Source: a virus
Virus record (IMG/VR): IMGVR_UViG_3300029215_000002
Coordinates: 1-64,000 of that record
Strand: one strand, 5' to 3'
DNA length: 64,000 bases
The notes below the pieces were generated by a model. That model saw only the letters and a list, made by a program, of their open reading frames with translations. It searched no databases and had not been told where the DNA came from. This document shows positions 11,666-37,281 of this stretch, one piece after another. Positions within the stretch are counted from its first letter, which is position 1; every line of letters begins with the position of its first letter. The translations under genes were made by a program, and so were the position numbers.

Positions 11666-11670
11666 CTCTT

Positions 11671-14508: not shown

Positions 14509-14523
14509 ATATAACTTACTCCT

Positions 14524-14670: not shown

Positions 14671-14756
14671 TCTTTTATCCTCCAGTATGATAATTCATCA
14701 GTTTTTAATTTCCTGTAAGTTTATTTATTTCTTGCCTCCAACTATATATTCTCTAT

Positions 14757-15116: not shown

Positions 15117-15140
15117 CTATATATCCTCTCTTTCACATTT

Positions 15141-15572: not shown

Positions 15573-15574
15573 TG

Positions 15575-16375: not shown

Positions 16376-16427
16376 TTATAATTACCTCCACTTTAATATT
16401 CTCCAAAAGAAATCGAAAATTCTTGTG

Positions 16428-17259: not shown

Positions 17260-17431
17260 CCCCTGATAGATTATTCTCTACTCGTTCATAAACATCTGCT
17301 ACAACAGATTGTCCATTTTTGGTGTCTATGATTTTTAATGCACAATCAAAAACATGAAGATACTTTGCAAGAATTTCCTCTATCTCAATTGCGTCTATTG
17401 TTTTAATAAGTTTTGTTGCCATAATTCGCAC
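17237..17431 (-). CDS. hypothetical protein (64 aa)
   Basis: minus-strand ORF. Confidence 0.35.
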   Translation of the reverse strand: MRIMATKLIKTIDAIEIEEILAKYLHVFDCALKIIDTKNGQSVVADVYERVENNLSGGVYVKDF

Positions 17432-17433
17432 TC

Positions 17434-17670
17434 CTACATTCCAACATATTCAGGAAATTGTTCATAGATTTTATTCCACTTTTCAATAATTCTTCTGCTC
17501 ATAATTTCCTGATCAATCAATTCTTCTACGATCTTTGCAGTATCATACTGCGTCTGGCTTTTAAGAATTTTACAAGCATTTTTCTTATACTCTTCTAAAT
17601 CTTCTATAGAAACACTTGTCAACATTGTATTTTCGTTTGTTAATCCTTGCATTACTGATGGTGTTGTCAA
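17434..17670 (-). CDS. hypothetical protein (78 aa)
   Basis: minus-strand ORF. Confidence 0.4.
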   Translation of the reverse strand: MTTPSVMQGLTNENTMLTSVSIEDLEEYKKNACKILKSQTQYDTAKIVEELIDQEIMSRRIIEKWNKIYEQFPEYVGM

Positions 17671-17704
17671 TCGTTCACCTCCATATGAAACCGATAATTC
17701 CTAC

Positions 17705-18034
17705 TTATTTATTCTCTTCACTCGGAACGCAGATTTCAAAATCTCCATTCTCATTCATATAATAAGGAAACACATTAGCTGGAATTGTAACTTTATATGC
17801 TTCCGTAACATACTCGTACATAATAAGAAACTTTCCTTTTGAAATGCATGGTCTAACACGAAATCCATTTTCACATGCTACTTGAATATCAAATGGTATC
17901 ATTTTTTTAAGATGTTGATCATCATCTAATGTTGCTACCATGATTGAATCTAAGATAATGTTTTTCTGTTCAAAATCATAGTAATCTTCAAAGGTTTTTA
18001 TAAACTGTATTTTACATAATTCTTTACCAGCCAT
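17705..18034 (-). CDS. hypothetical protein (109 aa)
   Basis: minus-strand ORF. Confidence 0.45.
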   Translation of the reverse strand: MAGKELCKIQFIKTFEDYYDFEQKNIILDSIMVATLDDDQHLKKMIPFDIQVACENGFRVRPCISKGKFLIMYEYVTEAYKVTIPANVFPYYMNENGDFEICVPSEENK

Positions 18035-18049
18035 ATATTTATTCTCCTC

Positions 18050-18487
18050 TTACATTGCCTTTGCAATCGACTTAACCTGATTATCAAGGTATTTTACAAC
18101 CAGACGTTTCTTAGCAAGATTCAAACCTTTTTCAATTTCAAATTCATCATCTTTACAACAGGTAGCTTCTGCTTTAAATGCTCCACATCTAATCTGAACT
18201 TTTTTTCCGTTAGTTCGATAAAGATAGTTACATCTTACATCTTTGCCATTAATATCTGTAAACCTAATTTCATTTAAGTACCACTTACTCCAAGTCCTCT
18301 TTACAGGTTCTTCAACATTTTCAAAATACTTTTCATACTCGTCATATGACATACAGCCAAGATGACAACCACCAAACTTAAAGCAGATTACTCCACCTTC
18401 CTGAATATCAGTTACTTCACAAATCTCACCAATGTTATCAAAAACACCCATTTTATGAATGAGTTTAATTTTATCGCCTTTTATCAT
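18050..18487 (-). CDS. hypothetical protein (145 aa)
   Basis: minus-strand ORF. Confidence 0.45.
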   Translation of the reverse strand: MIKGDKIKLIHKMGVFDNIGEICEVTDIQEGGVICFKFGGCHLGCMSYDEYEKYFENVEEPVKRTWSKWYLNEIRFTDINGKDVRCNYLYRTNGKKVQIRCGAFKAEATCCKDDEFEIEKGLNLAKKRLVVKYLDNQVKSIAKAM

Positions 18488-19614
18488 GCTGCTTTGTCCT
18501 CCTTATTCGCAAATTTTTTGTTAAATGCATCAATAGCTTTCTGATCCTCTGCTGTTACATCATCATTAAATCTTCGTCTAGCTTGTACAATATGATTATT
18601 TCTTACTTCAATCGTTACCAAACTCTCATCTGGTTTACTCTTTTTTCTCAAAAAAAGAATGTGGCACTCACCGTCAATAACCTTATCTATGTATGAAGCA
18701 ACGCAATTTGACATCTGAGCAGCCTCATCCTTTATATCCTGTGTAGAATCTGGATAAATGAATATGTAATCACCAAAAGAGCATTCATACTGTTTATTTA
18801 TTCTCTTTTTAAATAACTCTTCTGAGAACTCTTTCTTCATTCGATTGTAATTTCTACAAGCAATCTTATGTGTAGTAAGGAAATGCCGTGGATATTTATC
18901 AAATTTAGGACTAATAGTTTTCATCATATTTGCATAATCGCACAATTCATGAATTAGGAAACCCATATCTTCAACTGCCTCAAACGTCTTGATTCTATCC
19001 AGATACAACCATAAATCCTTTGCATTATATCCAAAGTCGTTCACTAATTTATTGAAAAATGAATAATAAATTAAATCTCCATTAACTCTATCCCATGTTT
19101 CTGCATTCCAAACAATATAAATATCATCAAAATCTAAACTTAAATAATCCAAGTTATAAGCTATGTAATGTGCATCTTGATTTTCTTTATAATACTCAAC
19201 AGTATTGTTGGATAATTTAATAGGATATTTACGACATAATTTGATTAGAGATTTTGGGATTTCATTTATAGAATACTTGAACCGACAACCATCTTTAATA
19301 ATGTCATCAAAACCTGCTGAAAATATCTGTTCAAATCTATTATATCTTGGGACTCTATCAAGAATTGTTCCTATGTTACTTATCGGATACGAATACATTT
19401 CTGAGTTTCTAACAAATCGTAAAAACTTTGCATACTTCTCATCATCGCAACAATCAAATAATTTATTTAATGTAAGTCCACTTAACTGACTACATAGATT
19501 TTTTACTGGTTTACCCTTAATTCCAATAGCGGTCTTTGTTGCAAAATCATATTTTACGGTACGACCATCTTCATAATCAAAAATGAGATACTGCCTATCT
19601 TTATATACTCTCAT
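18484..19614 (-). CDS. PcfJ-like protein (376 aa)
   Basis: C-terminal MSNCVASYIDKVIDGECHILFLRKK...SLVTIEV resembles the conserved PcfJ-domain core. Moderate call from memory of the family. Confidence 0.45.
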   Translation of the reverse strand: MRVYKDRQYLIFDYEDGRTVKYDFATKTAIGIKGKPVKNLCSQLSGLTLNKLFDCCDDEKYAKFLRFVRNSEMYSYPISNIGTILDRVPRYNRFEQIFSAGFDDIIKDGCRFKYSINEIPKSLIKLCRKYPIKLSNNTVEYYKENQDAHYIAYNLDYLSLDFDDIYIVWNAETWDRVNGDLIYYSFFNKLVNDFGYNAKDLWLYLDRIKTFEAVEDMGFLIHELCDYANMMKTISPKFDKYPRHFLTTHKIACRNYNRMKKEFSEELFKKRINKQYECSFGDYIFIYPDSTQDIKDEAAQMSNCVASYIDKVIDGECHILFLRKKSKPDESLVTIEVRNNHIVQARRRFNDDVTAEDQKAIDAFNKKFANKEDKAA

Positions 19615-19668
19615 TTATATCACTCCTATCTGTTATAATTTTCAAAAGAAACGAATCTTGTTCTCAAT

Positions 19669-20256
19669 TCACATCATTATGTGTTTCGCCATCTGAGTAA
19701 TACAAAACTCCTTAATTCCAAGGTCAATTCCAATTTCATTATTACTAACTGGTAATTTCTCTTTATCATTCTGATTTACCAAAACAGAAACATAATATTT
19801 ACCAGAAGGGTTTTGTGAAACTGTAACAGATTTAATTAGCCCTTCAAAATCTCTATGTTTCTTGACCCTAATTAAACCTATTTTAGGTAATTTAATATAT
19901 CTATCAGATACATATATATTTCCACCTTGATTGTTAGTCGTGTAAGAGTAGTTGTGATTTTTCTTACTTTTGAATTTAGGGAAACCTACTTCTGGTCTTT
20001 TGAAGAAATTATTATAAGCCGTTTGTAAATTCATCTGTGCATTTGCTAACGCAAGAGAATCAACTTCTTTTAACCACTCAAACTCTTTCTTGTATTGAGC
20101 AGGTGTATTGTTAAGTTTCTTTTTTGTTTCCTTATAATACTCAATCTTATCTGAAAGCATACGATTATAGATGAATCGTACACATCCAAAACACTTTGCA
20201 AAATATTCTTTTTGTTCTTCGTTAGGATACAATCTGTATTTATATGCAATTAACAC
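19669..20256 (-). pseudogene. tnpB: Truncated TnpB (IS200/IS605/IS607 OrfB) N-terminal fragment, 195 aa, ending just after the RuvC-I motif
   Basis: N-terminal YRLYPNEEQKEYFAKCFGCVRFIYNRML and RuvC-I GIDLGIKEF are present. RuvC-II, the zinc finger and RuvC-III are missing. Paralogous to the intact TnpB at 36091..37281. Confidence 0.7.
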
Positions 20257-20303
20257 CTATAATCACTTCCTTTCATTTATATATTCTCTGTTTCATCGTC
20301 TTG

Positions 20304-20696
20304 CTACATACTTCTATATCTCTTTAACATTTCAGCATAAACTTCATCATTAGAAGCATAATATTCATCATCTAATATCTTCTGAATTTCCTGCTTACGC
20401 TTATTCATTTCTTTCTTTAACTTCTCTTTTTCTTTACGCTGTTCAACTCGTTTTTCAAATGCTGAAATATCAATTTTACCTATAACTTCTGCTGTAATAT
20501 TCTTTTTGCATCTTTCGGTTGCTTCTTCTACACTAATAATTTCAGAAATCTTTGATGGAGCAGAATAACCACTCAATATAACATAATCTCCAACATTATA
20601 AACATTACCATCTTCATAAATTGCAAAATGATATGAATTGCAACCATAGTTAATAACAGCTACTTTAGTGAAACCTTCTAATTTTAATTTTGTCAT
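20304..20696 (-). CDS. hypothetical protein (130 aa)
   Basis: minus-strand ORF. Confidence 0.45.
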   Translation of the reverse strand: MTKLKLEGFTKVAVINYGCNSYHFAIYEDGNVYNVGDYVILSGYSAPSKISEIISVEEATERCKKNITAEVIGKIDISAFEKRVEQRKEKEKLKKEMNKRKQEIQKILDDEYYASNDEVYAEMLKRYRSM

Positions 20697-20707
20697 AATA
20701 ATCCTCC

Positions 20708-21157
20708 TTATTCTGCATCAATAACTAAATTTCCATTACCGTCTACATAAATATTTGCTTTTGACAACTTCGTAGACACTGAACCTTTATTTGTTTCAAT
20801 AATAATTTCTCTGTTTGGATATGCCTTTCCAAGTTTTGTTAACATATCTTCTACCATATCTACCGAAGATATTTTACCTTTACTAACAACCCAATTTGTA
20901 AACTGTTCAAAATCTTTTTCAGTCATAACAACATCAGAGTAATAAAAATCCTTATTTGCAATAATTGCCCAAATTTTCTGAAGCTTTTTAATAAACGAAC
21001 TACTTTGTTCTCTATAGAAGTTGCCATTAGTAAAAGCAACAAAGGCACGGTCTGTTTCGTCTTCTTCTTTATTAATTTTTATATGTATACCGTCATTACA
21101 GCCACATTTACAACTTACAATTAGTTCATCGTTTTCGAAATTTTTTAATACTGCCAT
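20708..21157 (-). CDS. hypothetical protein (149 aa)
   Basis: minus-strand ORF. Confidence 0.45.
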   Translation of the reverse strand: MAVLKNFENDELIVSCKCGCNDGIHIKINKEEDETDRAFVAFTNGNFYREQSSSFIKKLQKIWAIIANKDFYYSDVVMTEKDFEQFTNWVVSKGKISSVDMVEDMLTKLGKAYPNREIIIETNKGSVSTKLSKANIYVDGNGNLVIDAE

Positions 21158-21182
21158 TTTAATTTCTCCTTTTGTAAATTAT

Positions 21183-21416
21183 TTATTGTATTAATTTAGA
21201 TAACACTTTGACGCTTTCAATAATTATTCCAACAAACATAACACCTAAACCAGTAAACATTCCAGATATAATAGAACTGCCGATAATATGTTTTATGTCA
21301 AATAATTTTAAGCACATATCTCGTAGTTCTTTAAAACCAAAAAGAACTAACAAATATCCTACTGCGCCAACTACAAAACCAATCAAACCAGCTTTGCATG
21401 TCATAACTCCAAACAT
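21183..21416 (-). CDS. small two-TM membrane protein (77 aa)
   Basis: Hydrophobic segments GLIGFVVGAVGYLLVLFGF and GMFTGLGVMFVGIII. Confidence 0.45.
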   Translation of the reverse strand: MFGVMTCKAGLIGFVVGAVGYLLVLFGFKELRDMCLKLFDIKHIIGSSIISGMFTGLGVMFVGIIIESVKVLSKLIQ

Positions 21417-22087
21417 CAGTTTTCACCACCTAATAATTCCAAAGCTACTTTATAATATTTAGTTCTCCCTTTATATTCAGAAGAACTAACTTTGCTCAAT
21501 TCAAGTTTTATCTTACCAATGGTATATTGATGAGTGATAGCATCTTCCATGACCTGAATGAATCTTATACACTGCTTTAATTTCTTATGCTTGTCTCTAA
21601 TATCATCTAGCAAATAACCAACCTTTGCCATTCTATGAGCTTGTGGTTTCTTACCACCTCTATTTTCTCTATAAGTCTGTAATGCGTGTTCAATATCAGA
21701 TTCAGCACTATCACATCTACTTAATTCTGCTATAAGTAGATTTTTATATGTATTAAGCTGTTCCATGTCCCAGCCTGCTAATCCTAGAAGATTATTTGTT
21801 TCATTTATTATCTTGTCTAGCATTGAATAATCAAAATTACTTTCATCCATATAAACTCCATCATTACCTTTGTAGTAAAGAGATAATCCTGATTCTTCAT
21901 TTTTATCTACATCAACAAGCTGATAATTTCTTAGCCATGATAACCTTTTGCCGCCTCTCTGAACTAATGACCTTGCTTGTTTGTAGGTAAATTCTTTTGC
22001 TTTTAATGGCGAAGTTGTTGCTAGATACTCACCTATCTTCATAGGATTTTCCATTACATAATTCTTACCATTGGTTAAAATAAACAC
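21416..22087 (-). CDS. hypothetical protein (223 aa)
   Basis: minus-strand ORF. Confidence 0.5.
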   Translation of the reverse strand: MFILTNGKNYVMENPMKIGEYLATTSPLKAKEFTYKQARSLVQRGGKRLSWLRNYQLVDVDKNEESGLSLYYKGNDGVYMDESNFDYSMLDKIINETNNLLGLAGWDMEQLNTYKNLLIAELSRCDSAESDIEHALQTYRENRGGKKPQAHRMAKVGYLLDDIRDKHKKLKQCIRFIQVMEDAITHQYTIGKIKLELSKVSSSEYKGRTKYYKVALELLGGEN

Positions 22088-22117
22088 TTTCTTATTCTCC
22101 TTTCTTATTGTAAATAA

Positions 22118-22189
22118 CGGGGCTAATCGGATTCGAACCGATGAATGCAGAGATCAAAACCCTGTGCCTTACCACTTGGCGATAGCCCT
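22118..22189 (-). tRNA. tRNA-Gln: tRNA-Gln (anticodon UUG), 72 nt, no encoded CCA
   Basis: Hand-folded cloverleaf: acceptor AGGGCUA/UAGCCCC, D-arm GCCA-AGUGGUA-AGGC, anticodon stem CAGGG/CUCUG with loop UUUUGAU, T-arm AUCGG-UUCGAAU-CCGAU, discriminator G. Very similar to E. coli tRNA-Gln. Position 1:72 is an A·C mismatch. Confidence 0.8.
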
Positions 22190-22224
22190 ATATTTTGTGA
22201 TGAATTAACTCATCACAATTATTT

Positions 22225-22542
22225 TCACTTTTTGTTACCTAATTTAATAAATCTTTCGATTAAATTAAAGAATATTATTACTAGAGCTGCTATGATAATA
22301 CTTAGAATAGAACTGAAAAAATGAACTAACTTTAGACAAATTCCAAATATATTCTTTCCAGTAAAATCAAAATATCTCTCAAAGATATTTCCAAAAATAA
22401 CATATAAACAAAATTCGATTATTGTTGATTCGCTATATTCATTACATGATTCACTCATCATCATCTCTAAAACTAAGAATTCTATCAAATTTACAAACAT
22501 TAAATATATAACTAAAATAATTCCTAAAAAACCTATCAACAT
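22225..22542 (-). CDS. polytopic membrane protein (105 aa)
   Basis: Strongly hydrophobic throughout. Confidence 0.45.
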   Translation of the reverse strand: MLIGFLGIILVIYLMFVNLIEFLVLEMMMSESCNEYSESTIIEFCLYVIFGNIFERYFDFTGKNIFGICLKLVHFFSSILSIIIAALVIIFFNLIERFIKLGNKK

Positions 22543-22560
22543 TCATATCACATCCAATCT

Positions 22561-22869
22561 TCAAAACATCAAATCTTCAAAGTCAACTATCTTTTTGAAA
22601 CTTCGATTATTATATAGTTCACTCTTTTTTCTTCGTACTATTCTGTTTGCATGCTTCTTAGCATATTTAAATAAACTCCAATTAGATCTAACATAAGATT
22701 TAGAGATTATATTAACTGGAGGTGGATAATGACCAAAGCTATGTATTGTTTGTAAATGCTTCTTATATTTATATTCGCTTTTTCTTCTTTTACGATGTCG
22801 TTTCTTTTTATAATCTGTCGCTGTGAGAGTAACGTCATATTCTTTCACATTATCCACTTCCTTTAACAT
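22561..22869 (-). CDS. highly basic protein (102 aa; KKKRHRKRRK)
   Basis: minus-strand ORF; lysine/arginine-rich. Confidence 0.4.
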   Translation of the reverse strand: MLKEVDNVKEYDVTLTATDYKKKRHRKRRKSEYKYKKHLQTIHSFGHYPPPVNIISKSYVRSNWSLFKYAKKHANRIVRRKKSELYNNRSFKKIVDFEDLMF

Positions 22870-22872
22870 TAT

Positions 22873-23382
22873 TTATACAGTTTCATCATATACTCTAATA
22901 GACTTTACTGCACCTTTTAGTCCGCCAGACGAAACATAAGACATATCTCCCATTTTCTTACAAGTCTTGTCCAATGATTTAGTGTCAACAATAAATTCTA
23001 CAACACAACCATTTTTACCAAGTCTGTTACTTGAATCAGTATGTTTATTATCTTTACCGTCTGCAAGAACACATTTAACTACTGTACCATTCTCCATAAC
23101 AATATCTAACTTTGTACCAATTGTTGTACAATAATAACTTCCTACGGCAATACAGTATCTACCATCAATAGTTCTTATACCATACTTACCAGTAGTTGCT
23201 CTTTTCTGTAACTTATATTGGTAAGAAGTTCTATCTGTTATAGCTTTATAACTCATATAGGTCTTCTTACTTGCTCCTACAGGAACTGCTTTTGTTGTAT
23301 AACTAGCTCCATACGCATTTAAACAACTAACGACTACTGCCGTTATAGCTACCACACTTTTAATAATTTTCTTTACACTCAT
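22873..23382 (-). CDS. secreted protein with a possible 3D-domain-like (cell-wall hydrolase) region
   Basis: N-terminal signal peptide MSVKKIIKSVVAITAVVVSCLNAYG. GTKLDIVMENGTVVKCVLADGKD weakly resembles the 3D/YuiC motif GTKIYIEG...DTGGAIKG. Confidence 0.35.
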   Translation of the reverse strand: MSVKKIIKSVVAITAVVVSCLNAYGASYTTKAVPVGASKKTYMSYKAITDRTSYQYKLQKRATTGKYGIRTIDGRYCIAVGSYYCTTIGTKLDIVMENGTVVKCVLADGKDNKHTDSSNRLGKNGCVVEFIVDTKSLDKTCKKMGDMSYVSSGGLKGAVKSIRVYDETV

Positions 23383-23570
23383 ATATTCACTCTTTCGTAC
23401 TTGCTATCCAACCACGTTATGCAGGCATTGATAGCATCTTCTTTTCTGATGAATGTTTCGCCATTAGGAATTGAAAATTTGAACCCATCTAAATCAACTC
23501 TTGCCATACTAACTAATAATGGTGCAATCTCTTCCAATGACATATTTCGTAACCTATCAATCTGTCTCAT
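23379..23570 (-). CDS. hypothetical protein (63 aa)
   Basis: minus-strand ORF. Confidence 0.35.
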   Translation of the reverse strand: MRQIDRLRNMSLEEIAPLLVSMARVDLDGFKFSIPNGETFIRKEDAINACITWLDSKYERVNI

Positions 23571-23591
23571 ATGTATATTCCCTTTTTAACA

Positions 23592-24461
23592 TCACTTCTT
23601 ATCTGTTACTACAGTTGATGTACCGTTAATTGTTACCCAGCCATGCTTAACTCTTGCTTCAGCTTCTTTCATTCTAATAAGTTCGTCAGTAATAGAAGAA
23701 CTTAGCTGCTTATTGGCTTCTGCCTGAGCTTTTGCTTCTATTAACTGAGCGTCTGCTTTAGCCTGTGCTTCTGTTCTTGTCTTTTCAGCATCGGCTTTTG
23801 CCTTCTTGATAGCAGTCTGATTATTAATTTCCTGTGTTTCTGCTGCCTGCTGTGCCGTAATCTTTGCGTTAATAGCTTCCTGAGTCTTCTCATCGACTGT
23901 AATATTAATAAGAGAAACATTGCTTATTGTTATGCCATAAGGGTCAAACTTCTTATTGAGATAATTTGTAAGCGCAGTATTAACATTTGCTCTTTCTGAA
24001 CCAAGAATATCTGATACCTTATAATTCGCTACTACTTCTTTAGTCCAAGAGATAATATTTGGCTTAATGAAGCTTTCTCTTACTTCTTTACCAGACTGAC
24101 CACGGAATCTTGTGAATAAACCAGAAACCTTGTCAGCATTATATTGATATGTAAATGTAAGGTCTATCTGAATAGCCTTGCCTTCTGATGAGCTAGCTGA
24201 GAAACTATCATTCTCACTAGAATCACCATTCTTACCAGCTGTCAAATAAGACTGTTCAAGGCTAGTTGAATATAAAGTTGTCTTCACCATAGGTGATTTA
24301 AAATGCCAACCTTGAGTTAAAACCTTGTCTTTAACGCCACCATTCATGCTGTACTGTATTGCTACATAACCAGCAGGTACTCTGACCGTTGATTTCGCAA
24401 ACAAAATTACTACTATAAGCAATACTATACCTGATATAATTCCACCAATTGTCTTTTTCAT
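23592..24461 (-). CDS. SPFH/band-7 (prohibitin/HflKC-like) membrane protein
   Basis: N-terminal TM segment, then VRVPAGYVAIQYSM..., then a long A/Q/E/K-rich coiled-coil tail typical of SPFH proteins. Confidence 0.65.
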   Translation of the reverse strand: MKKTIGGIISGIVLLIVVILFAKSTVRVPAGYVAIQYSMNGGVKDKVLTQGWHFKSPMVKTTLYSTSLEQSYLTAGKNGDSSENDSFSASSSEGKAIQIDLTFTYQYNADKVSGLFTRFRGQSGKEVRESFIKPNIISWTKEVVANYKVSDILGSERANVNTALTNYLNKKFDPYGITISNVSLINITVDEKTQEAINAKITAQQAAETQEINNQTAIKKAKADAEKTRTEAQAKADAQLIEAKAQAEANKQLSSSITDELIRMKEAEARVKHGWVTINGTSTVVTDKK

Positions 24462-24464
24462 TTT

Positions 24465-24605
24465 TTAATTCTCCTTTTCTTCATCTTCATTTATAAAACT
24501 ATTTACCATATCCATTATCCACGAACCAATCTTTGTGAATAATGGCGACATCAAAAGCCATAAGACTATTAATGCAATACATAATAAGATTAAAAATACC
24601 GACAT
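24465..24605 (-). CDS. small membrane protein (46 aa) directly upstream of the SPFH gene; not in the ORF track
   Basis: MSVFLILLCIALIVLWLLMSPLFTKIGSWIMDMVNSFINEDEEKGE; RBS AGAGGTGA. Confidence 0.35.
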   Translation of the reverse strand: MSVFLILLCIALIVLWLLMSPLFTKIGSWIMDMVNSFINEDEEKEN

Positions 24606-24623
24606 ATATAACTTCACCTCTTT

Positions 24624-25127
24624 CTAGCAAAATTCTCCTTCTATAAACACATAACCATTTTCATCCCTATAATAATTAGAAACATCATCAAAGGGATTTA
24701 ATTTTGCATATTCAATATGGTCATATGGAATGGTAATATCATAATCATCCTTTGTTCCTTCGATAAAATACTTAGTTCCACCAAACAATTTATCAGGAAC
24801 ACCTTTTGGAACATATTTCATATACTTAACTTCTTGATGTTCTTTCCAATCAATAAGTTCCTCTTGTAATTCCTTAATTGAAATCTCAGTACCATATTCA
24901 TCATAAATATCTATAACATCGTGATGTCTGGATAAAAATTCTATCATTTCTTTCACCGACTTATATGCTTTGTTATGTCTTTCAAATATAGGACACCAAC
25001 CATAGCTTCTTTTACCTACATGTATTTCATATCCCCAATATGGCTCGTCCACAATTCGATACTCATCTGAAAAATACTTCTCTGCAAGATTCTTATTTGA
25101 TGTTATTATGTAATAGTTTGTACTCAT
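24624..25127 (-). CDS. hypothetical protein (167 aa)
   Basis: minus-strand ORF. Confidence 0.45.
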   Translation of the reverse strand: MSTNYYIITSNKNLAEKYFSDEYRIVDEPYWGYEIHVGKRSYGWCPIFERHNKAYKSVKEMIEFLSRHHDVIDIYDEYGTEISIKELQEELIDWKEHQEVKYMKYVPKGVPDKLFGGTKYFIEGTKDDYDITIPYDHIEYAKLNPFDDVSNYYRDENGYVFIEGEFC

Positions 25128-28846: not shown

Positions 28847-28879
28847 TTGACTAATATATTTTATATGTTACAATATAAA
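28847..28879 (+). promoter_or_regulatory. sigma-70-like promoter for the XRE regulator gene (TTGACT, 16 nt spacer, TACAAT)
   Basis: ttgact aatatattttatatgt tacaat, 20 nt upstream of RBS GGAGGTGA and the ATG at 28895. Confidence 0.5.
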
Positions 28880-28894
28880 TATGGAGGTGACATT

Positions 28895-29092
28895 ATGTTT
28901 TCATACAAACCATTATTAAAATTACTCATAGAGAGAGATATGACAAAAACTCAACTTCGTGAAGCCACTGGAATGAGTATGAATACTCTTGCTAAAATAA
29001 GCAAAAACGAATATATTTCAATGGCTACTCTTGACAACATCTGTTCTTATTTACATTGTAATATCGAAGATGTAATTGAATTTATTGAATAA
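28895..29092 (+). CDS. XRE-family helix-turn-helix transcriptional regulator (Cro/CI-type), 65 aa
   Basis: MTKTQLREATGMSMNTLAKISKNEYISMATLDNICSYL is a classic HTH_XRE. I prefer the ATG at 28895 with RBS GGAGGTGA over the longer track ORF from 28847. Confidence 0.7.
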   Translation: MFSYKPLLKLLIERDMTKTQLREATGMSMNTLAKISKNEYISMATLDNICSYLHCNIEDVIEFIE

Positions 29093-29101
29093 TTTATATA
29101 T

Positions 29102-29117
29102 TGTCACATAAGTGACA
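29102..29117. promoter_or_regulatory. Perfect palindromic operator TGTCACATAAGTGACA between the XRE and RHH genes
   Basis: 6-bp inverted arms TGTCAC/GTGACA with a 4-bp spacer, 24 nt upstream of the RHH start. Confidence 0.5.
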
Positions 29118-29140
29118 TTCTCTTAAACGGAGGTGATAAT

Positions 29141-29287
29141 ATGGATATCGGAAAAGACAAGACTGGTGTACTCATTAATATGAACAAAGAATTGAAATCC
29201 AAACTAGAAGAACTTGCTAAAAAAGATGGTCGTTCACTAACTAACCTTATTAATAAAATACTTACTGAATATATAAAAGGTAAGTAA
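29141..29287 (+). CDS. Ribbon-helix-helix (CopG/Arc/MetJ-like) DNA-binding protein, 48 aa; not in the ORF track
   Basis: MDIGKDKTGVLINMNKELKSKLEELAKKDGRSLTNLINKILTEYIKGK; RBS GGAGGTGA. Confidence 0.55.
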   Translation: MDIGKDKTGVLINMNKELKSKLEELAKKDGRSLTNLINKILTEYIKGK

Positions 29288-29656: not shown

Positions 29657-29974
29657 CTATTCTATTTTCTCTTCTTCGTTATTCCGTGGTACAAGCAGAA
29701 AAGTGCTAACTTTCCCTTTTCTTTCTATCTTTTTAATATTTTGCTTTGAAGAGTAAGCATCGATTGTTTGAACTAATTCATCATATCGTTTTGCTATTGT
29801 CTCTGCCTGTTTAATCATATCTATACAAGTCTCTTTGAGTATAGGTAAGAAACTCTCTACACAATTTTCTTCTAAGTTACAAATAGAAACTGGAACTTTA
29901 TTTCCCTTAGATTCCTTTATTAACTTTGTGGCTTCTTCTTCTGTTATTTCGATTATTGCAGCTTTGAAACACAT
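29657..29974 (-). CDS. hypothetical protein (105 aa), translationally coupled immediately downstream of the MazF-like gene
   Basis: Its ATG at 29974 abuts the MazF stop (TAA at 29975..29977). Confidence 0.45.
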   Translation of the reverse strand: MCFKAAIIEITEEEATKLIKESKGNKVPVSICNLEENCVESFLPILKETCIDMIKQAETIAKRYDELVQTIDAYSSKQNIKKIERKGKVSTFLLVPRNNEEEKIE

Positions 29975-30370
29975 TTATTCACTCACCCTTTCTATGTTAC
30001 ATACATAAGCATTATAAATTTGTTGCTTATATTGTTTGTCGGTTATTTTTCCTCTATAATCTAAAATTCTACTCTTGTCTACTTGGCGAACAGCTTCACC
30101 TAAAACAATACTATCTTCTGTTAAAGCAGATATAAATTCGCTTTTAAGGAGGACGTGTGTTGGTTGCTTTAAACTTCTCTTTTGAGAAGTTAATGGCATT
30201 ACGATTGTTGTTGGACTATAATAATTTCCAATATTGTTTTGAATAACCACAGCAGGTCGAACGCCTCCTTGTTCACTTCCAATTGGTACATCGCCAAAAT
30301 CAACAGTAACAATATCATATGCCTTAATTTTTATTTCTCTTTTATGTTGCTCCTTTTTATTCTCAACCAT
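29975..30370 (-). CDS. MazF/PemK/Kid-family endoribonuclease toxin
   Basis: VDFGDVPIGSEQGGVRPAVVIQNNIGN...TTIVMPLTS matches the MazF core (DLDPTKGSEQAGHRPAVVLS...). Confidence 0.7.
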   Translation of the reverse strand: MVENKKEQHKREIKIKAYDIVTVDFGDVPIGSEQGGVRPAVVIQNNIGNYYSPTTIVMPLTSQKRSLKQPTHVLLKSEFISALTEDSIVLGEAVRQVDKSRILDYRGKITDKQYKQQIYNAYVCNIERVSE

Positions 30371-30671
30371 TTATTATTCGTCCTCCTTTCTTTAGTTTTT
30401 ATGTACTATTTTGTATCTTTCTTACTCTCTAACAATATATCAATAACATTGCCAACAACTTCTCTTTGAGAATAAGATAATCTGTATAACTTATGAGTAA
30501 TTTCTTCTTCCGTCATAGCATCACCTTCTTCTATGTTATTTCGGTAACACATTTTTGTTATCTTGATAACATTATAATTTACATTTTATTATCTGTCAAG
30601 TGTTTTTTGTTATTTTAATAACATTTTTTAACAAATCTAACCTTTTTAAGTTATTTTTAAAACATAATTTG

Positions 30672-30700
30672 TTGACACATTTTTTAAAATTTGATATTAT
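30672..30700 (+). promoter_or_regulatory. sigma-70-like promoter (TTGACA, 17 nt spacer, TATTAT) for the CI-like repressor
   Basis: ttgaca cattttttaaaatttga tattat, followed by RBS GAGGTGA and the ATG at 30721. Confidence 0.55.
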
Positions 30701-30720
30701 TTATGCAGAGGTGATATATT

Positions 30721-31497
30721 ATGACAATAGGCGAAAAAATGGGTCAAATTTTATACTTGAATAAAATTGATAACTTTGAAACAGCAGGCGAAAAATTAGG
30801 ATGTACTCGCCAACATATTAGCAACATCGTAAAAGGAGAAAAGACTCCTTCTGTTCAATTTATCAATAGTTTCTGTTATGTTTTTGACGTAAATAAAGAT
30901 TGGTTGGTCAATGAAAACAATGTAGATTTGACTCCTTTTATATCGAATAACAATTTAATAAAAAAAATTACAAGTAATTATATGTTGCTGTCAGAAGCAA
31001 GTAAAAATATTGTTGATAATCTTATTGATGGTTTATTGGAATTAAATAATAATCAACCGTCAACTACTCAACAACCAGTAATCAGATTAGCTGTATATGA
31101 CCAGCCAGTATGTGCTGGTAATGGTAACTTCATTACTGATGCAACAAAAACATTTAAGGATTTCCCTAATGTCCCATCTGATGCTGATTTCGCTGTTAGA
31201 GTTCAAGGTGATTCCATGACTCCTGTTTATAATGATGGTGATTTAGTGTTTATTAAATCTACTGACACATTGAATAACGGAGATGACGGGATTTTTATCG
31301 TAGACGGCGAAATAACGCTGAAAAGATTTATGGGTAATGAATTAATCCCGTTAAACACAAAATACCCTAAAATAAGCCAAAAAGCCATAATTCAAGGCAA
31401 AGTAGTTGGTATCGCAGAACACCACTCTGATTTAGAGGCTGAAGTCTTAGATATTGTAAATCAAGACAAGCCACAAAAACTTAAAAAATCTATTTAA
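30721..31497 (+). CDS. CI/LexA-like repressor: N-terminal XRE HTH + C-terminal S24 peptidase (autocleavable)
   Basis: HTH AGEKLGCTRQHISNIVKGEK; candidate Ala-Gly cleavage site VCAG|NG; Ser in GDSMTPV and Lys in ITLKRF, matching the LexA/CI Ser-Lys dyad. Confidence 0.8.
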   Translation: MTIGEKMGQILYLNKIDNFETAGEKLGCTRQHISNIVKGEKTPSVQFINSFCYVFDVNKDWLVNENNVDLTPFISNNNLIKKITSNYMLLSEASKNIVDNLIDGLLELNNNQPSTTQQPVIRLAVYDQPVCAGNGNFITDATKTFKDFPNVPSDADFAVRVQGDSMTPVYNDGDLVFIKSTDTLNNGDDGIFIVDGEITLKRFMGNELIPLNTKYPKISQKAIIQGKVVGIAEHHSDLEAEVLDIVNQDKPQKLKKSI

Positions 31498-31502
31498 CAA
31501 AA

Positions 31503-31545
31503 AAGGCAAGAAAAGAACTTTAAGCTCTCTCTTGCCTTTTTCTCT
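31503..31545. terminator. rho-independent terminator after the CI-like gene (possibly bidirectional)
   Basis: AAGGCAAGA...TCTCTTGCCTT stem followed by TTTTTCTCT. Confidence 0.55.
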
Positions 31546-31868
31546 TACTTAACCGAAGTATAAGTAATAAATATTGCTTGATCTATCAGCTTGCAAGTTT
31601 ATCAATAACAATTGTTCTTTGCATTTATAAACTCCCTTAATATGCCTTCCAATCAAGCTTTTAACATAATGTACCTGCATACCGCTTGCCTCCCTTTCCA
31701 TCATATTCCCTAAGACAATGGACTGTTTAGCACCAGAAAAGAGGTACAGAGAAATATTAACATAAAATGACATAATTCGACAAGAAGTAACATTTTCCAT
31801 TTTTTATCCTATACACACTATAGGACTTGTGTTATAATACAACCAAAATAATAAATTAGGAGTGATAA

Positions 31869-31967
31869 AATGACACAAGTGCAAAAAGATATTATTAAAT
31901 TATATTTACAACTCAATACCGAAGACGAGAAAGAGTTTCTCATATGGTTATTTAGTTTAATCGATTA
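31869..31967 (+). CDS. small ORF (32 aa) with a strong RBS; not in the ORF track
   Basis: MTQVQKDIIKLYLQLNTEDEKEFLIWLFSLID; RBS TAGGAGTGA; an extended -10 tgtTATAAT upstream; terminator downstream. Confidence 0.35.
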
Positions 31968-31988
31968 AAAATTAATATCTTGTATATA

Positions 31989-32026
31989 ATAGCCTTATGT
32001 AGTTTACAAAGGCTATTTTTATTTTA
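31989..32026. terminator. rho-independent terminator (AATAGCCTT...AAGGCTATT + T-run)
   Basis: 9-bp stem followed by TTTTATTTT. Confidence 0.5.
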
Positions 32027-32282
32027 TTGATTCTCTTAGCTCATTCGCTTTCTCTTCGTCAATAATGCCGTAGTTTAGCAAATTGTTTATATCTATATGT
32101 GCTTCTCTATTAATTTTTCTTTTAATATCATACTTAGCTCCAAGCAACAAAGCTATTCGAATGATTTCTTCATTTGTTGGATTTTTAACTTTGCATATAT
32201 CTGTATATACTTGTCTCATAATCTCTAATTCTTTTTCAAGTTCTTTTTCCTCAATCAAATATTCAACTGTAACTTTAATCAT
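32019..32282 (-). CDS. hypothetical protein (87 aa)
   Basis: minus-strand ORF. Confidence 0.4.
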   Translation of the reverse strand: MIKVTVEYLIEEKELEKELEIMRQVYTDICKVKNPTNEEIIRIALLLGAKYDIKRKINREAHIDINNLLNYGIIDEEKANELRESIK

Positions 32283-32306: not shown

Positions 32307-33410
32307 TTACTTTCGCCCATACATATCTGCGTTTACTTCAGCTTGCCAGTAGTTATGGCTCGTAGTATAAGAGTTAAACAACATAGCAATTAAATAGGCT
32401 TTAATATTTTGAATCCTAGTTGGATTTTCTTTTAATGCCACTATCACATACTCTATATGGTCATATTTTAATTTCCAGAATCTTTGTTGGACAATTGTAC
32501 TTGGATATTCCACTCCAGAAATCATATAGCTTATGTTATCAACAGTTACAACTTCTGTCATAAGTTCAACTATCTCATCAATTATTTCTCTGTCATTAGA
32601 GTAAGAGATTATTAAATCGCTATAACCTATGTTTTGTTTTATAATTTGGTTCAAACGAATATAATCTTGCATCGTATACTTTGGTTGTCTTTCTCTATCT
32701 ATCAATCCATCTCTTGTGTTATTAATATTATTATAGTTAGGTTGATAGATTGATTGTTTAATACTTAATTGTTTAGTATTTAATTGTTTAGTATTTAATT
32801 GTATGCGGTTTTCCATATCAGGAAATCCCATATCTGGGTTATCCATATCTGGGAAATCAGGATATGGATGAGATACCAGTAAATCTGCCCTTTTCAAAGG
32901 ACACCTTTCTTTTTCGCTTATGTAATCTTCAATCGAGATATTATCGGCAACATTTAAATTTTTAGTATTATTGTAATGTGTATCATTTGTATTAAAATCA
33001 GTATCTTTCCCTTCGATTTGTTTAATATTAGTATTATTATTTTTAACACTATTATTAATATTACCTTCAGTAGTGTTTTCAGAATTAACCTTATTATTAT
33101 TACATTTAGTAAACTTTTGAGGTTCATCATAAAGTGTATAATCCACATCTAAGATTTTACCTTTATCATCTCTAATTGTAGTTCTAATTAAATAACCTAA
33201 TTCTTCTAATTTTTTTAATCCACTTGTAATAGTTGTTCTGCCATCTGGTAAAATTTGATTTAATCCATTAATAGAAAATTCCCACTCAGATGGTAGACTT
33301 AACATTGTTATAAGCAGACCTCTTGATTTAATATCTAAATTCATATCTCTTAATATTGCATTGTTAACAATTGTGAAATTATTTTTTAGTTCTTTCTTTA
33401 GTATGCCCAT
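32307..33410 (-). CDS. Putative replication initiator (N-terminal winged-helix/DnaD-RepA-like domain) carrying internal iterons
   Basis: The N-terminus ILRDMNLDIKSRGLLITMLSLPSEWEFSINGLNQILPDGRTTITSGLKKLEELGYLIR resembles replication-initiator/replisome-organiser HTH domains. The central region is encoded by tandem DNA repeats. Confidence 0.5.
   Translation of the reverse strand: MGILKKELKNNFTIVNNAILRDMNLDIKSRGLLITMLSLPSEWEFSINGLNQILPDGRTTITSGLKKLEELGYLIRTTIRDDKGKILDVDYTLYDEPQKFTKCNNNKVNSENTTEGNINNSVKNNNTNIKQIEGKDTDFNTNDTHYNNTKNLNVADNISIEDYISEKERCPLKRADLLVSHPYPDFPDMDNPDMGFPDMENRIQLNTKQLNTKQLSIKQSIYQPNYNNINNTRDGLIDRERQPKYTMQDYIRLNQIIKQNIGYSDLIISYSNDREIIDEIVELMTEVVTVDNISYMISGVEYPSTIVQQRFWKLKYDHIEYVIVALKENPTRIQNIKAYLIAMLFNSYTTSHNYWQAEVNADMYGRK
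32751..32880. repeat. Iteron-like tandem repeats inside the rep gene (about 3.5 copies of TAATTGTTTAGTATT; then CCATATCTGGG x2 plus an inverted copy)
   Basis: Directly visible: ...gattgtttaatact taattgtttagtatt taattgtttagtatt taattgtatgcgg..., then cccatatctgggttatccatatctgggaaatcaggatatgg. Confidence 0.6.
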
Positions 33411-33438: not shown

Positions 33439-34386
33439 TTATACTATCCTGAGTTTATTCGCCATATTTATAGCTGTTTGATACTTGTCTACATCATCAG
33501 TAAGACACCTAATAATTTTTCCTAAATCATCAGATTTTAGGGAGATAACAGGCATATTTTTGACTATCTCATCACCTTTGCCAGCCAATACATTATGGAT
33601 AAACTCCCCATGGTCATTAATCAACTGTCTATTTTTCTCGTCTGTTAAACCAATATAATCCATAGTATCGTTTAAATTTGTATGATTAAACAATTTCTGC
33701 AATGATAATAAACAATCGGGATCAAATGGATGTGTCTTATGAATCCAATAGCCAAAACTCTTACGAAGAGAGTGCGTACTGACAGCATATTTTATATTCG
33801 CTGCTTCAACTGCTTTGTTTAACAGTTTTCTATAAACATTCGTTTGTTGCTTTACGACATCGTTATATTCCACCACATAATAAAGATAATCTCCAAGAGA
33901 TGAATATCTTTGTTGTTTACTAAACTCTTTGATTATTTTCTCTTTTCTATCTTCTGATATAGTTTTATTTAGTGCTTTACACCAAAACTCTATATCATTT
34001 TTACTGTAAATATCTAAGTTCTTTCTTTTTATCCAGTTACTTTTAGGAATATATTTGAAGATGTATTCGTTGTAATGTTTCTTTATATCAACATCTACAT
34101 TCTCCAAATACTTATCTACAACTTCAAACACAGTATCACTTATGGGGATATTAGTAACTTTCTCTGTTTTTTGTTCCTCAATAGTGTTAATTTCTCTTTT
34201 TCGATTTCCGTTTTCGTAATACAAATCAGACCATTTTATCATGACTGTATCACCAATTCTTCTACCGAGCAGGAGTTCCAACATTGTAATGAGATATCCA
34301 TCCCATTCATTATTATTTTCAAACCATTCAACTACATTTCTAATGTCTTCCATTTTCCAAAACGGATATACTGCCATATTTATCAA
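33439..34386 (-). CDS. int: Tyrosine site-specific recombinase/integrase (small, XerC/D-like), 315 aa
   Basis: C-terminal catalytic boxes: STHSLRKSFGYWIHKTH (H-x-x-R ... H) and LLSLQKLFNHTNLNDTMDYIGL (catalytic Tyr). Confidence 0.7.
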   Translation of the reverse strand: MINMAVYPFWKMEDIRNVVEWFENNNEWDGYLITMLELLLGRRIGDTVMIKWSDLYYENGNRKREINTIEEQKTEKVTNIPISDTVFEVVDKYLENVDVDIKKHYNEYIFKYIPKSNWIKRKNLDIYSKNDIEFWCKALNKTISEDRKEKIIKEFSKQQRYSSLGDYLYYVVEYNDVVKQQTNVYRKLLNKAVEAANIKYAVSTHSLRKSFGYWIHKTHPFDPDCLLSLQKLFNHTNLNDTMDYIGLTDEKNRQLINDHGEFIHNVLAGKGDEIVKNMPVISLKSDDLGKIIRCLTDDVDKYQTAINMANKLRIV

Positions 34387-34458: not shown

Positions 34459-35088
34459 TTATTTAAAAATATCCGTATTCCACAATTTATTCAATACTTG
34501 TGGATCGCTAGGTAAATTAGAATAAGTTGCACCCACAATATCCAATTTTTTATATTCTTCTTCAGTTATAATAATTCCTTCATCTCCTATTGCAGTTTTA
34601 TCATAATCATATCCATTTGAATTTGGATTATCAAAATAAAATTTTCTATATTCAGTTTTCCCATCTTTTTTATGATCATATAAGCAAGCAATTACTTTAC
34701 CTGTACTCATTTCTGTTGTTACTAATCGGTTAAATCTTGGGTCATATTTGTTATAAGCCAAATCTCCAAATCTCAATGCTATCTCTTTATTTCCTTCATC
34801 AATTCTACGCATTTCTGCAATTCTTCTATCAAATGAATCTGCATAAATCTTATTACTCTTTGCACCTACAGTATAAGTATGTCTATTTCCATACCTATCA
34901 TATCTTGTATGCTGATAAGTTTTTTCACCATTATAAAGCTCGTGTCCTACTCTATCATAGCAAACTCTATTTCCATTTTCGTCTATTCTTAGAGTTCCGT
35001 TCTTTGACTGTTCATTCTCAATCGCACACTTTGTACCACTAATACCTAAAGCTCCTAAAAAACCTAAAACACCTAATAATCCTAACAT
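34459..35088 (-). CDS. secreted/lipoprotein-like protein (209 aa)
   Basis: N-terminal signal-like MLGLLGVLGFLGALGISGTKC; tyrosine/aspartate-rich YD-like repeats. Confidence 0.45.
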   Translation of the reverse strand: MLGLLGVLGFLGALGISGTKCAIENEQSKNGTLRIDENGNRVCYDRVGHELYNGEKTYQHTRYDRYGNRHTYTVGAKSNKIYADSFDRRIAEMRRIDEGNKEIALRFGDLAYNKYDPRFNRLVTTEMSTGKVIACLYDHKKDGKTEYRKFYFDNPNSNGYDYDKTAIGDEGIIITEEEYKKLDIVGATYSNLPSDPQVLNKLWNTDIFK

Positions 35089-35929: not shown

Positions 35930-36110
35930 ATAAAAAGTTATAATTATCTTATCTTTTATGTTTCATTCCTACTTCTATGAGTATGCTTTTGAGGGTTGCT
36001 TGCAACCCTCTACTTACAAGTTCTTGTACTCTCCATAGGCGTAAATTCCTGACTAACGAATCAGTACATATCTGTGATAACTTGATTGTGTTATACTACA
36101 GATTGTTTTA
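35930..36110 (-). ncRNA. Candidate omega-RNA (TnpB guide RNA scaffold) overlapping the 3' end of tnpB and the element's right end
   Basis: Position expected for omega-RNA. It contains a perfect hairpin GAGGGTTGC-tt-GCAACCCTC and further short hairpins (TACAAG-tt-CTTGTA; CTGAC..TCAG) immediately 3' of the tnpB stop. Confidence 0.35.
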
Positions 36111-37281
36111 AAATATTTTCTCCGTATTTTTTTAGATTTAAAGAAGCTTGATAATCTCTGTCAATTACATTTCCACATTCACATCTGTAAATACGGTCTG
36201 ATAAACTTAAATCTTTCTTGATTGTTCCACAACAACTACATAATTTAGAACTTGGAAAGAATCTGTCTACAATGATTACTGAAATATTATTCCAAACAGA
36301 CTTATATTCAATTTGTCGTCTAATTTCATAAAATCCTTGTTGTTGTACTGCTTTGGATAAATGCCTATTCTTCATCATTCCACTTACATTCAAATCTTCT
36401 AACACAATAAAACTTGGTTCTCGTTTTATAATCTCTGAAGTTATATGATGTATGTAGTTCTGACGAATGTTTGTTAGTCTATGATTTAATTTTAATAAAA
36501 GTTTTTCCTTTTTGATTACATTCTTTGTTTTACAGTAACTTTCTCCTTTCTTATTTTTTCCATATTTTCTTGATATAGAACGCTGTAATCTGCGTTTTTG
36601 TTTTTCTAACTTCTTAACTCTTTGTGTCTTGTTAATGTTTTGATATTTATTACCATCAGAACATATTGCTAAATCTTTAATTCCTAAATCAATTCCAATT
36701 CCTTCATTAGACGGATTTATAGTGGAATCTTCATACTCAATACCAACCGTAAAATACCAATTTATTCCATCATATTTGATACGAGGATTCGTGTACTTAC
36801 AATCTGTAGGTATTCTATTATGTTCTGCAAGTCTAATCCAATTTAACTTTTGTTTGCTTTTCTTCTTAGAATTAGCAAACCCCTCAACTTTTACATGAGT
36901 ATCAGAAAATTGAATCCTTACATTATCCTGATAGAAAGATGGCATTGAAAATTTACGGCTTTTAAACTTAGGGAATTTTGAATATCCTTTGAAAAATCTC
37001 TTATATGCGTTGCAAGCATCTTTAATTGCTTGTTTTGTTACATTATTAGAGATTTTATTTAACCAAGAATATTTATCAGTTTTCTTCAACTGTGTAAATT
37101 CTTTTCTCAAATCTCCATCAAATATGAACTTGCCACCATTTTTATGGTTTTCTTTTTCTCTACTTAAAGCCCAATTATAAGCAAATCTGGCAGTATTAGC
37201 ATATTGGAAAAGTTTAGTCTTTTGCTTGTTATTTGGAAGTAACATTACTCGAATTGTTTTTATCATCTTTTTCACCTCCAT
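36091..37281 (-). CDS. tnpB: TnpB (IS200/IS605/IS607-family OrfB RNA-guided endonuclease), intact, 396 aa
   Basis: RuvC-I GIDLGIKDLA, RuvC-II IVLEDLNVSGM, zinc finger CSCCG...CECG, RuvC-III DRDYQASLNL. Confidence 0.85.
   Translation of the reverse strand: MEVKKMIKTIRVMLLPNNKQKTKLFQYANTARFAYNWALSREKENHKNGGKFIFDGDLRKEFTQLKKTDKYSWLNKISNNVTKQAIKDACNAYKRFFKGYSKFPKFKSRKFSMPSFYQDNVRIQFSDTHVKVEGFANSKKKSKQKLNWIRLAEHNRIPTDCKYTNPRIKYDGINWYFTVGIEYEDSTINPSNEGIGIDLGIKDLAICSDGNKYQNINKTQRVKKLEKQKRRLQRSISRKYGKNKKGESYCKTKNVIKKEKLLLKLNHRLTNIRQNYIHHITSEIIKREPSFIVLEDLNVSGMMKNRHLSKAVQQQGFYEIRRQIEYKSVWNNISVIIVDRFFPSSKLCSCCGTIKKDLSLSDRIYRCECGNVIDRDYQASLNLKKYGENILKQSVV

Follow-up and report, generated by a model that had tools for sequence, protein, structure and literature searches.

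A DUF6017 protein gene of a large SPbeta-like phage with a candidate replication origin in its own linker DNA

Introduction

Replication origins that lie inside the gene for their own initiator are a well-known design. At the origin of phage lambda, iterons and an AT-rich region are located inside the O gene, and the corresponding peptide forms the linker between two domains. Here, we analyze a gene, referred to as rep, that may follow this design and that lies in a 64,000-nt stretch of viral DNA (IMG/VR virus record IMGVR_UViG_3300029215_000002, positions 1 to 64,000; hereafter, the window). Its product, Rep, carries a C-terminal DUF6017 domain, and the DUF6017 family is itself unstudied.

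The closest matches to this locus among described systems are the pSK41-type RepA_N initiators and G38P of phage SPP1; lambda O is an analogue. In the case of pSK41 Rep, the Rep boxes are located centrally within rep and the linker peptide is dispensable (PMC5703833). In SPP1, oriL lies inside gene 38 and consists of direct repeats together with an AT-rich unwinding element, and G38P also binds a second site (PMC6316719). pSK41 Rep, pAD1 RepA and the pPR9 hybrid, the latter with an HTH_36 N-terminal domain, have a three-part plan in common with the window protein (PMC5703833). In this plan, a winged helix binds central repeats in its own gene, the linker is encoded by the origin, and a separate C-terminal domain makes contacts. 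The corresponding parts of the window gene are as follows:

32307..33410, minus strand: rep gene, 367 residues, with a winged-helix N-terminal domain, a disordered linker and a DUF6017 C-terminal domain
33111..33410, minus strand: N-terminal winged-helix DNA-binding domain, residues 1-100
32691..33110, minus strand: linker, residues 101-240, Asn-rich and predicted to be disordered (predicted local distance difference test score, pLDDT, <50); its DNA carries repeats
32307..32690, minus strand: compact C-terminal DUF6017 domain made of helices and a single beta-hairpin, residues 241-367

Results and discussion

Two phased repeat arrays in the linker DNA

The open reading frame (ORF) at 32307..33410 starts with ATG, and its central part contains two adjacent arrays of short repeats:

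32813..32867: array A, 10-mers in 15-bp phase (four in total; three direct, one inverted) that are candidate iterons, i.e. sites for Rep binding
32751..32810: array B, tandem repeat of an AT-rich 15-bp unit (CAATTAAATACTAAA in gene sense), approximately 3.3 copies, directly after array A

In gene sense, array A starts with the inverted copy CCATATCCTG (32858..32867), followed by CCAGATATGG twice (32843..32852 and 32828..32837) and by CCTGATATGG (32813..32822). Every 10-mer is followed by an A/T-rich 5-mer, giving 5-nt spacers, and the GC content of the array is ~39%. Exactly two copies of the direct repeat CCATATCTGGG are present in the 64 kb, one at 32828 and the other, 15 bp further on, at 32843; the number of matches with at most one mismatch expected in the whole window is 0.45. 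The third direct copy, CCATATCAGG at 32813, is degenerate and shares the 15-bp phase with the other two, and the inverted copy, also in this phase, agrees with the direct copies at 8/10 positions. In array B, Tandem Repeats Finder detects a 15-bp period with 3.3 copies at 32753..32802 (94% matches, score 86). The 15-bp unit, TAATTGTTTAGTATT, is exact at 32766 and 32781, has three mismatches at 32751 and is followed by a partial fourth copy from 32796. Clusters of either repeat type are absent elsewhere within the 64-kb window. An earlier note on this DNA had reported the tandem 15-bp copies inside a rep-like gene, two direct repeats with an inverted copy, and the peptide readings QLNTKQLNTKQLSIKQ and PDFPDMDNPDMGFPDMEN; these descriptions are all borne out, and to them we add the degenerate third direct copy at 32813, which had been overlooked.

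The DNA next to array A contains an inverted repeat:

32694..32705 and 32742..32753: inverted repeat with arms TCTATCTATCAA and TTGATAGATTGA, respectively, 11/12 complementary, with a 36-nt AT-rich spacer

A 60-bp stretch from 32720 is in the least stable 0.5% of the window duplex and represents the minimum for 31.5-35 kb. This least stable duplex (32720..32780) overlaps with the inverted repeat and array B and adjoins the GC-richer array A. As a single strand, the inverted-repeat region folds better than 200/200 shuffled sequences (z = -3.5). Moreover, the DNA of array B is kept in relatives down to ~50% protein identity. Array B is a candidate for an unwinding region or for a second set of binding sites. 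An Rfam scan of 31.4-35.2 kb returned nothing relevant, and in a scan for promoters and terminators there was no excess over the shuffled expectation.

The linker DNA rather than the linker peptide appears to be selected

We compared synonymous divergence (pS) along rep in a phage clade of six close relatives, i.e. the window and the loci L001-L005, with 81-93% nucleotide identity between lineages and with L003 identical to L004. In four pairwise comparisons, pS was 0.00-0.11 in codons 199-246 vs 0.22-0.42 over most of the gene, with a binomial p of 0.002-0.02 in each of the four pairs; a sliding-window scan was also made. The constrained stretch, within which array B lies, is the following:

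32673..32816: stretch of suppressed synonymous divergence, codons 199-246

The same pattern is seen in an independent clade of ~50 genes from chromosomal elements of Clostridia (521 pairs), in which pS was 0.07-0.25 in the central region vs 0.6-0.75 in both domains. In this clade, non-synonymous divergence (pN) in the central region was 0.16-0.22 and, thus, about equal to pS. In other words, a single reduced rate applies to all central sites, a pattern that would follow from selection on the DNA, with the peptide carried along as a passenger. Because there is no alternative-frame ORF of ≥40 aa over the constrained stretch, an overlapping gene does not account for the low pS. As far as sequence comparison can tell, these rates say that it is the linker DNA, and not the linker peptide, that is under selection.

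Repeat sequences change while their geometry is kept

The 10-mers differ between relatives, and array A changes as a unit of DNA. In L003-L005, the direct and inverted 10-mers are both replaced, giving CCGGTTGTCG GTTTT CGACAACCGG CGACAACCGG with unchanged geometry. L006 and L007 have 10-mers of their own in the same phase, and L073, L075 and L080, which encode proteins ~35% identical to the window protein, have CCGTTGTCGG GTTTT CCGACAACGG. A near-identical palindrome, GTTGTCGG-TTTT-CGACAAC, is read in different reading frames in L005 and L073. Among the family genes, a 15- or 30-bp array is located directly after the winged helix in ~44/50, and inverted 10-mer pairs (5-nt spacer, ≥9/10 matches) number 32 in the central regions vs one in the flanking coding parts. 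The type of 10-mer tracks the subfamily of the N-terminal winged-helix domain. Because strict palindromy of the single 10-mers is only moderately enriched (39% of array 10-mers with at least 2/3 inner complementary pairs vs 16% in controls), the argument rests on the inverted-copy pairs.

A different arrangement is found in L095, in which a gene for a RepA_N+DUF6017 protein has the following repeats at the same place:

L095, 6423..6645: repeat region lying centrally within the RepA_N+DUF6017 gene, with a 23-bp palindromic A-tract unit (GAATTGTGAAAATCACAATTCAA) in 5.8 copies and then a 15-bp array in 3.9 copies

Because 23 bp is not a multiple of three, this period cannot encode a peptide repeat. 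The gene directly follows parA-parB, and its repeats have the look of a textbook iteron origin in an integrated element that adjoins tRNA-synthetase genes. Small "Bacteriophage sp." records with homologues were considered as minimal replicons; these are unverified linear scaffolds and are not used as evidence.

Rep combines an initiator-type winged helix with a DUF6017 domain

Residues 254-363 of Rep match Pfam DUF6017 (PF19481) with an E-value of 2.7e-28 and 99.5 bits vs a cut-off of 27. Residues 1 to ~160 match PHROG families for replication initiation or DnaD-like proteins (1e-20 to 1e-6); the match to phrog_186, "DnaD-like helicase loader", is confined to the N-terminal part. By both sequence profile and fold, the N-terminal winged helix is a remote homologue of the RepA_N N-terminal domains of known structure, and its closest solved or annotated relatives are initiators, of the RepA_N and DnaD-type winged-helix kinds, e.g. 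pSK41 Rep. Because an hhalign comparison with the RepA_N+DUF6017 set matched the C-terminal domain only (probability 99.9%), the homology of the N-terminal domain rests on the comparison with the solved RepA_N domains. Among the Pfam matches of the window protein, DnaB_2 is absent, and a DnaD-like fold, i.e. a five-helix DnaD-like domain such as the one with which pSK41/pAD1-type initiators bind DnaG primase, is not detectable in the DUF6017 C-terminal domain.

The two domains also occur in other combinations. Some other proteins join DUF6017 to true RepA_N domains (Pfam 1e-27 to 3e-31), and an N-terminal domain of the window type is elsewhere fused to DnaB_2 or Phg_2220_C C-terminal domains. 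This swapping matches the modularity of pSK41 and pPR9 (PMC5703833). Judged from its sequence, the window protein is neither a formal member of Pfam RepA_N nor a DnaD-type organizer; its family is best described as winged helix plus DUF6017. The DUF6017 domain is presumed to be a replisome-recruiting module.

Comparison with described origins

Compared to the pSK41-type systems, likeness extends to the A/T tracts between the repeat arms, A+T-rich tracts being present also in the pSK41 Rep boxes. Unlike the RepA_N proteins, Rep has no Pfam RepA_N match, and its C-terminal domain is DUF6017 without a detectable DnaD-like fold. The window repeats also differ from those of RepA_N systems in being 10-mers in an in-frame 15-bp phase with a switch in orientation, and the host element appears to be a large prophage rather than a plasmid. 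An antisense-RNA control region did not turn up, although no search was aimed at one.

The likeness to SPP1 lies in a putative phage initiator that has direct repeats and an adjacent AT-rich element in its own coding sequence (PMC6316719), and in a helicase that is encoded by the phage. In contrast to SPP1, genes for a helicase loader and a helicase are not adjacent to rep in the window, the primase-helicase gene is ~21 kb away and the C-terminal domain is a different one. A second, oriR-like repeat cluster is absent from the 64-kb window. For lambda O, the origin-in-gene layout is alike, but there is no family membership. Finally, the DUF6017 proteins of integrative elements in Clostridia, including that of pMG2200, have the same domain pair, central 15-/30-bp arrays and suppressed synonymous change; they differ in being only 26-37% identical to Rep, in belonging to conjugative or mobilizable elements and in lacking an adjacent small tyrosine recombinase.

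A model for initiation at rep

Taken together, the repeats, the N-terminal-domain homology, the selection acting on the linker at the DNA level and the family-wide layout lead us to suggest, with moderate confidence, that the product of the ORF at 32307..33410 is the origin-binding initiator of a large temperate phage of the SPbeta-like kind and that the origin lies in the DNA for its own linker. In this model, which is proposed by analogy with pSK41 Rep and SPP1 G38P, the N-terminal winged helix, as a dimer or tetramer, would occupy the phased 10-mers of array A (32813..32867), four in number. The bound array would then bend and stress the neighboring AT-rich region, comprising array B and the inverted repeat (32694..32810), resulting in melting. 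Subsequently, the DUF6017 C-terminal domain would recruit a helicase, a primase or a loader, which might be a host factor or the phage DnaG-DnaB fusion encoded at 9372..11288, and replication would start here. The earlier note had proposed a lambda O-style origin nested in the initiator gene. The initiator-like protein and the behavior of the repeats as a cis-acting DNA element uphold the nested arrangement as far as they go, and that it amounts to an origin we infer rather than know from experiment; the lambda O style holds as an analogy only, because the Pfam lambda O family is absent among the matches of the window protein and the PHROG match to an O-like family (phrog_678, 1.7e-6) is weaker than those to 11 other PHROG families.

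Several observations weigh against this model. Iterons are commonly spaced by ~11 or 22 bp, and a 15-bp phasing is, therefore, unusual. Matches to DnaA boxes are scattered, with one mismatch and without a cluster at the locus. Because array B is not AT-rich in every relative, as seen in L095, its role in unwinding is uncertain. On the protein side, Pfam HTH_36 matches residues 30-74 with 21 bits and thus under the 25-bit cut-off, and Pfam RepA_N (PF06970) has no match in the window protein at E ≤0.1. A full-text literature search for "DUF6017" returned no paper, and initiator function is assigned to the family by inference. Nor is an autonomous replicon that depends on DUF6017 documented, and the domain is rare on plasmids (21/72,556 records, mostly Enterococcus). 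Regarding the selection on the linker DNA, the pairwise pS comparisons are phylogenetically non-independent, and the appearance of conservation could also result from recombination that spreads a mobile central cassette.

Among the plasmid records, pMG2200 of Enterococcus faecalis has its DUF6017 gene (L009, 5767..6966) beside genes for DUF5348, PcfB and VirD4-like conjugation proteins. This locus looks like a Tn1549-type element, an element that the record does not name, and the Enterococcus plasmid records with DUF6017 probably carry such elements, as judged from pMG2200, the only one looked at. Tn1549-type elements may, thus, encode a theta-type initiator with an embedded origin.

The model provides a first functional hypothesis for DUF6017, i.e. 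that these proteins are RepA_N-like initiators that carry their own origin, and it narrows the origin of a large clostridial phage of the SPbeta-like kind to a testable candidate of ~200 bp. It could apply to at least 570 DUF6017-related loci in Clostridia, and the family includes the pMG2200 gene beside conjugation genes. If the members in chromosomal elements work alike, the excised elements would have a theta-type replicon, which bears on their stability and spread. Moreover, a comparative test that looks for a collapse of synonymous change together with repeats that ignore the reading frame may reveal embedded origins elsewhere.

Alternative roles for the repeats

The repeats might be bound by Rep and yet be regulatory, acting as an autoregulatory operator or roadblock, in copy control or handcuffing, or in incompatibility, with the true origin located elsewhere in a phage genome of at least 118 kb. 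The constraint on the DNA and the tracking between 10-mers and N-terminal domain establish no more than a cis element and its cognate binder; another origin could be served by the polymerase, primase-helicase and SSB that the phage encodes, and SPP1 has its second G38P-bound site (PMC6316719). However, in pSK41 and at SPP1 oriL, which have the same layout, the intragenic repeats are the origin (PMC5703833, PMC6316719). Furthermore, an operator needs no adjacent minimum in duplex stability, and a second 10-mer cluster is absent from the 64 kb. We, therefore, consider a purely regulatory function unlikely.

It is less probable still, in our judgment, that Rep is an accessory or regulatory DNA-binding factor of a mobile element, involved in excision, transfer or transcription control, and that the repeats are its operator. 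Its nearest solved or annotated N-terminal relatives are initiators, DUF6017 is fused to true RepA_N domains in a protein encoded after parA-parB, and the phage context is without transfer genes. These points are to be weighed against the facts that most relatives are in chromosomally integrated elements, beside genes for relaxase/NikA-like proteins (L008) or for PcfB and VirD4 (pMG2200), that a homologue is labelled "transposase" in one database source, and that the function of DUF6017 is uncharacterized.

A further candidate for acting on the repeats is encoded immediately upstream of rep:

33439..34386, minus strand: tyrosine recombinase, 315 residues

The inverted 10-mers with their short spacer could represent the core site of this recombinase, for multimer resolution or attachment, in which case the repeats would be recombinase sites. 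The order of the two genes is conserved and the catalytic residues are intact, and in L005 the perfect 10-nt inverted arms can, once the innermost base of each arm is assigned to the spacer, be re-read as 9-nt arms with a 7-nt spacer, a core-site-like geometry. In contrast, the arrays reach up to nine tandem copies in family members without an adjacent recombinase, tandem phased arrays are typical of iterons and not of recombinase core sites, and the 10-mer type follows the subfamily of the Rep N-terminal domain. Because arrays occur family-wide without an adjacent recombinase, we assign the repeats to Rep and not to the recombinase, and a core-site function seems very unlikely to us. Least probable of all is that the repeats serve solely to encode a flexible, repetitive linker of pentapeptides (e.g. 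PDMxN and QLNTK), with no role at the DNA level: the 15-bp period preserves the reading frame and xENP and QLNTK motifs recur in peptides across the family, but synonymous sites are as constrained as non-synonymous sites, the inverted DNA copy changes along with the direct copies, the same palindrome is read in another frame, and one relative has a 23-bp period.

The neighboring tyrosine recombinase

The identification of the adjacent 315-aa ORF as a tyrosine recombinase, as proposed in the earlier note, is confirmed by a match of residues 25-249 to Pfam Phage_integrase (8.8e-15). R43, K73, H205, R208, H235 and Y244 are invariant in five homologues. The catalytic match begins at residue 25, no family match was found for an N-terminal core-binding (SAM-like) domain, and a tail of ~65 residues follows the catalytic Tyr. 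The Xer models score far below threshold (TIGR02225, 26.8 bits vs 329.6; TIGR02224, 22.5 vs 335). Among annotated phage genes, the best matches are weak (~26-41% identity, with E-values of 1e-5 to 1e-3) and are to genes labelled "integrase" that lie at 12-16 kb in records of Streptococcus phages. A relationship to MrpR (YopR), the SPbeta repressor with an integrase fold, was also weighed and rejected. Because the catalytic residues are intact and there is no sequence match to MrpR structures, the recombinase is probably active. The order of recombinase and then rep is kept in L003-L007, down to ~40% recombinase identity. The recombinase may function in resolution, in integration or in a role coupled to the origin, and the dimer-resolution role suggested for it in the earlier note is possible. 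We give little credence to the idea that it acts on the same intragenic element as Rep, either because the inverted 10-mer pair doubles as a crossover site or because the Rep-bound array targets the recombinase. If it did act on array A, the origin would also be a site of multimer resolution or recombination, and initiation would be coupled to resolution within ~200 bp.

Upstream of the recombinase, the gene order is conserved as well:

34459..35088, minus strand: ORF of 209 residues; a gene for 203-211 residues is at the same position in L003-L007

The element: an integrated prophage is favored

The window is 100% identical to ~27.3-91.3 kb of a metagenome contig of 634,359 bp, and in three to four of the collection's blocks contigs >200 kb also encode window proteins. 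ParA, ParB, ParM and TubZ are absent among the Pfam-annotated genes of this contig at 20-100 kb (~80 kb) and among the scanned window ORFs. Together, the identity to part of a contig of this size, the window proteins on contigs >200 kb and the absence of partition genes over ~80 kb favor an integrated prophage and lend no support to the earlier suggestion of a phage-plasmid. In the part of the contig that was covered, neither a junction with host DNA nor a housekeeping gene came into view, and the element may instead be a phage genome of very large size. The contigs of its IMG/VR relatives measure 118 and 124 kb. Genes of the SPbeta type, i.e. for YonV_C in the window and for YonK and YonJ_CC just past its right end, make the element look SPbeta-like, and it appears to have its own replisome genes:

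2354..2914, minus strand: ClpP
5183..8491, minus strand: Pol III alpha
8500..9357, minus strand: PD-(D/E)XK nuclease
9372..11288, minus strand: DnaG-primase/DnaB-helicase fusion
11671..12078, minus strand: SSB, the single-stranded DNA-binding protein
12099..13049: AAA_24 (RecA/Sak4-like) protein

The replication block at 5174..13049 has 79% DNA identity to the 176-kb "Bacteriophage sp." record MT835469.1, which is the only megablast match for window positions 1..25000 among 50,697 phage records; megablast of the rep locus against the phage records returned nothing. An assignment of window 2-28 kb to structural genes was rejected, as this region holds genes for Pol III alpha, primase-helicase, SSB, nuclease, ClpP and nicotinamide adenine dinucleotide (NAD) salvage. 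The NAD-salvage cluster spans 580..1933 and continues past the left end (L097); it encodes isochorismatase/nicotinamidase-like and phosphoribosyl pyrophosphate (PRPP)-transferase-like proteins, then NAMPT and NAD synthase. Genes for a homing-endonuclease-like protein, a radical SAM protein and an NAD-dependent DNA ligase are near this cluster just outside the window.

Downstream of rep, the following genes are found:

32019..32282, minus strand: ORF of 87 residues, directly downstream of rep; the same gene is present in L003 and L004
30721..31497, plus strand: LexA-like S24-peptidase repressor, just downstream of rep
29975..30370, minus strand: MazF/PemK toxin, with a 105-residue partner ORF at 29657..29974
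28847..29287: small helix-turn-helix genes

The 87-aa ORF has no PHROG or NCBIfam match. The region 29657..31497 is a lysogeny and addiction module next to rep. Between the repressor gene and the 87-aa ORF, which converge, there is a gap of ~520 bp without a convincing gene (31498..32018), and a terminator, a small RNA or an attachment site could lie in this gap.

Further features of the window are:

16428..17030, minus strand: protein of 200 residues, the C-terminus of which matches the phage T7 gp5.9 RecBCD inhibitor family (2.7e-17)
18484..19614: PcfJ-like protein
19669..20256: ORF of 195 residues with an HTH_OrfB_IS605 domain only
22117..22190, minus strand: tRNA-Gln, anticodon TTG
36091..37281, minus strand: IS200/IS605-type TnpB (OrfB)
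59933..60958, plus strand: DUF3825 protein
61857..63095, plus strand: YonV_C protein

A stretch of ~2 kb at 35.9-38.0 kb is absent from the IMG/VR relative L001 and, therefore, the TnpB stretch looks recently inserted. Toward the right end, at ~59000..64000, genes switch to the plus strand and the GC content falls from 30% to 25%. Past the right end, the YonV_C gene is followed by genes for DUF6551, a protein of 953 residues, YonK and YonJ_CC; these are phage genes of the SPbeta-like kind.

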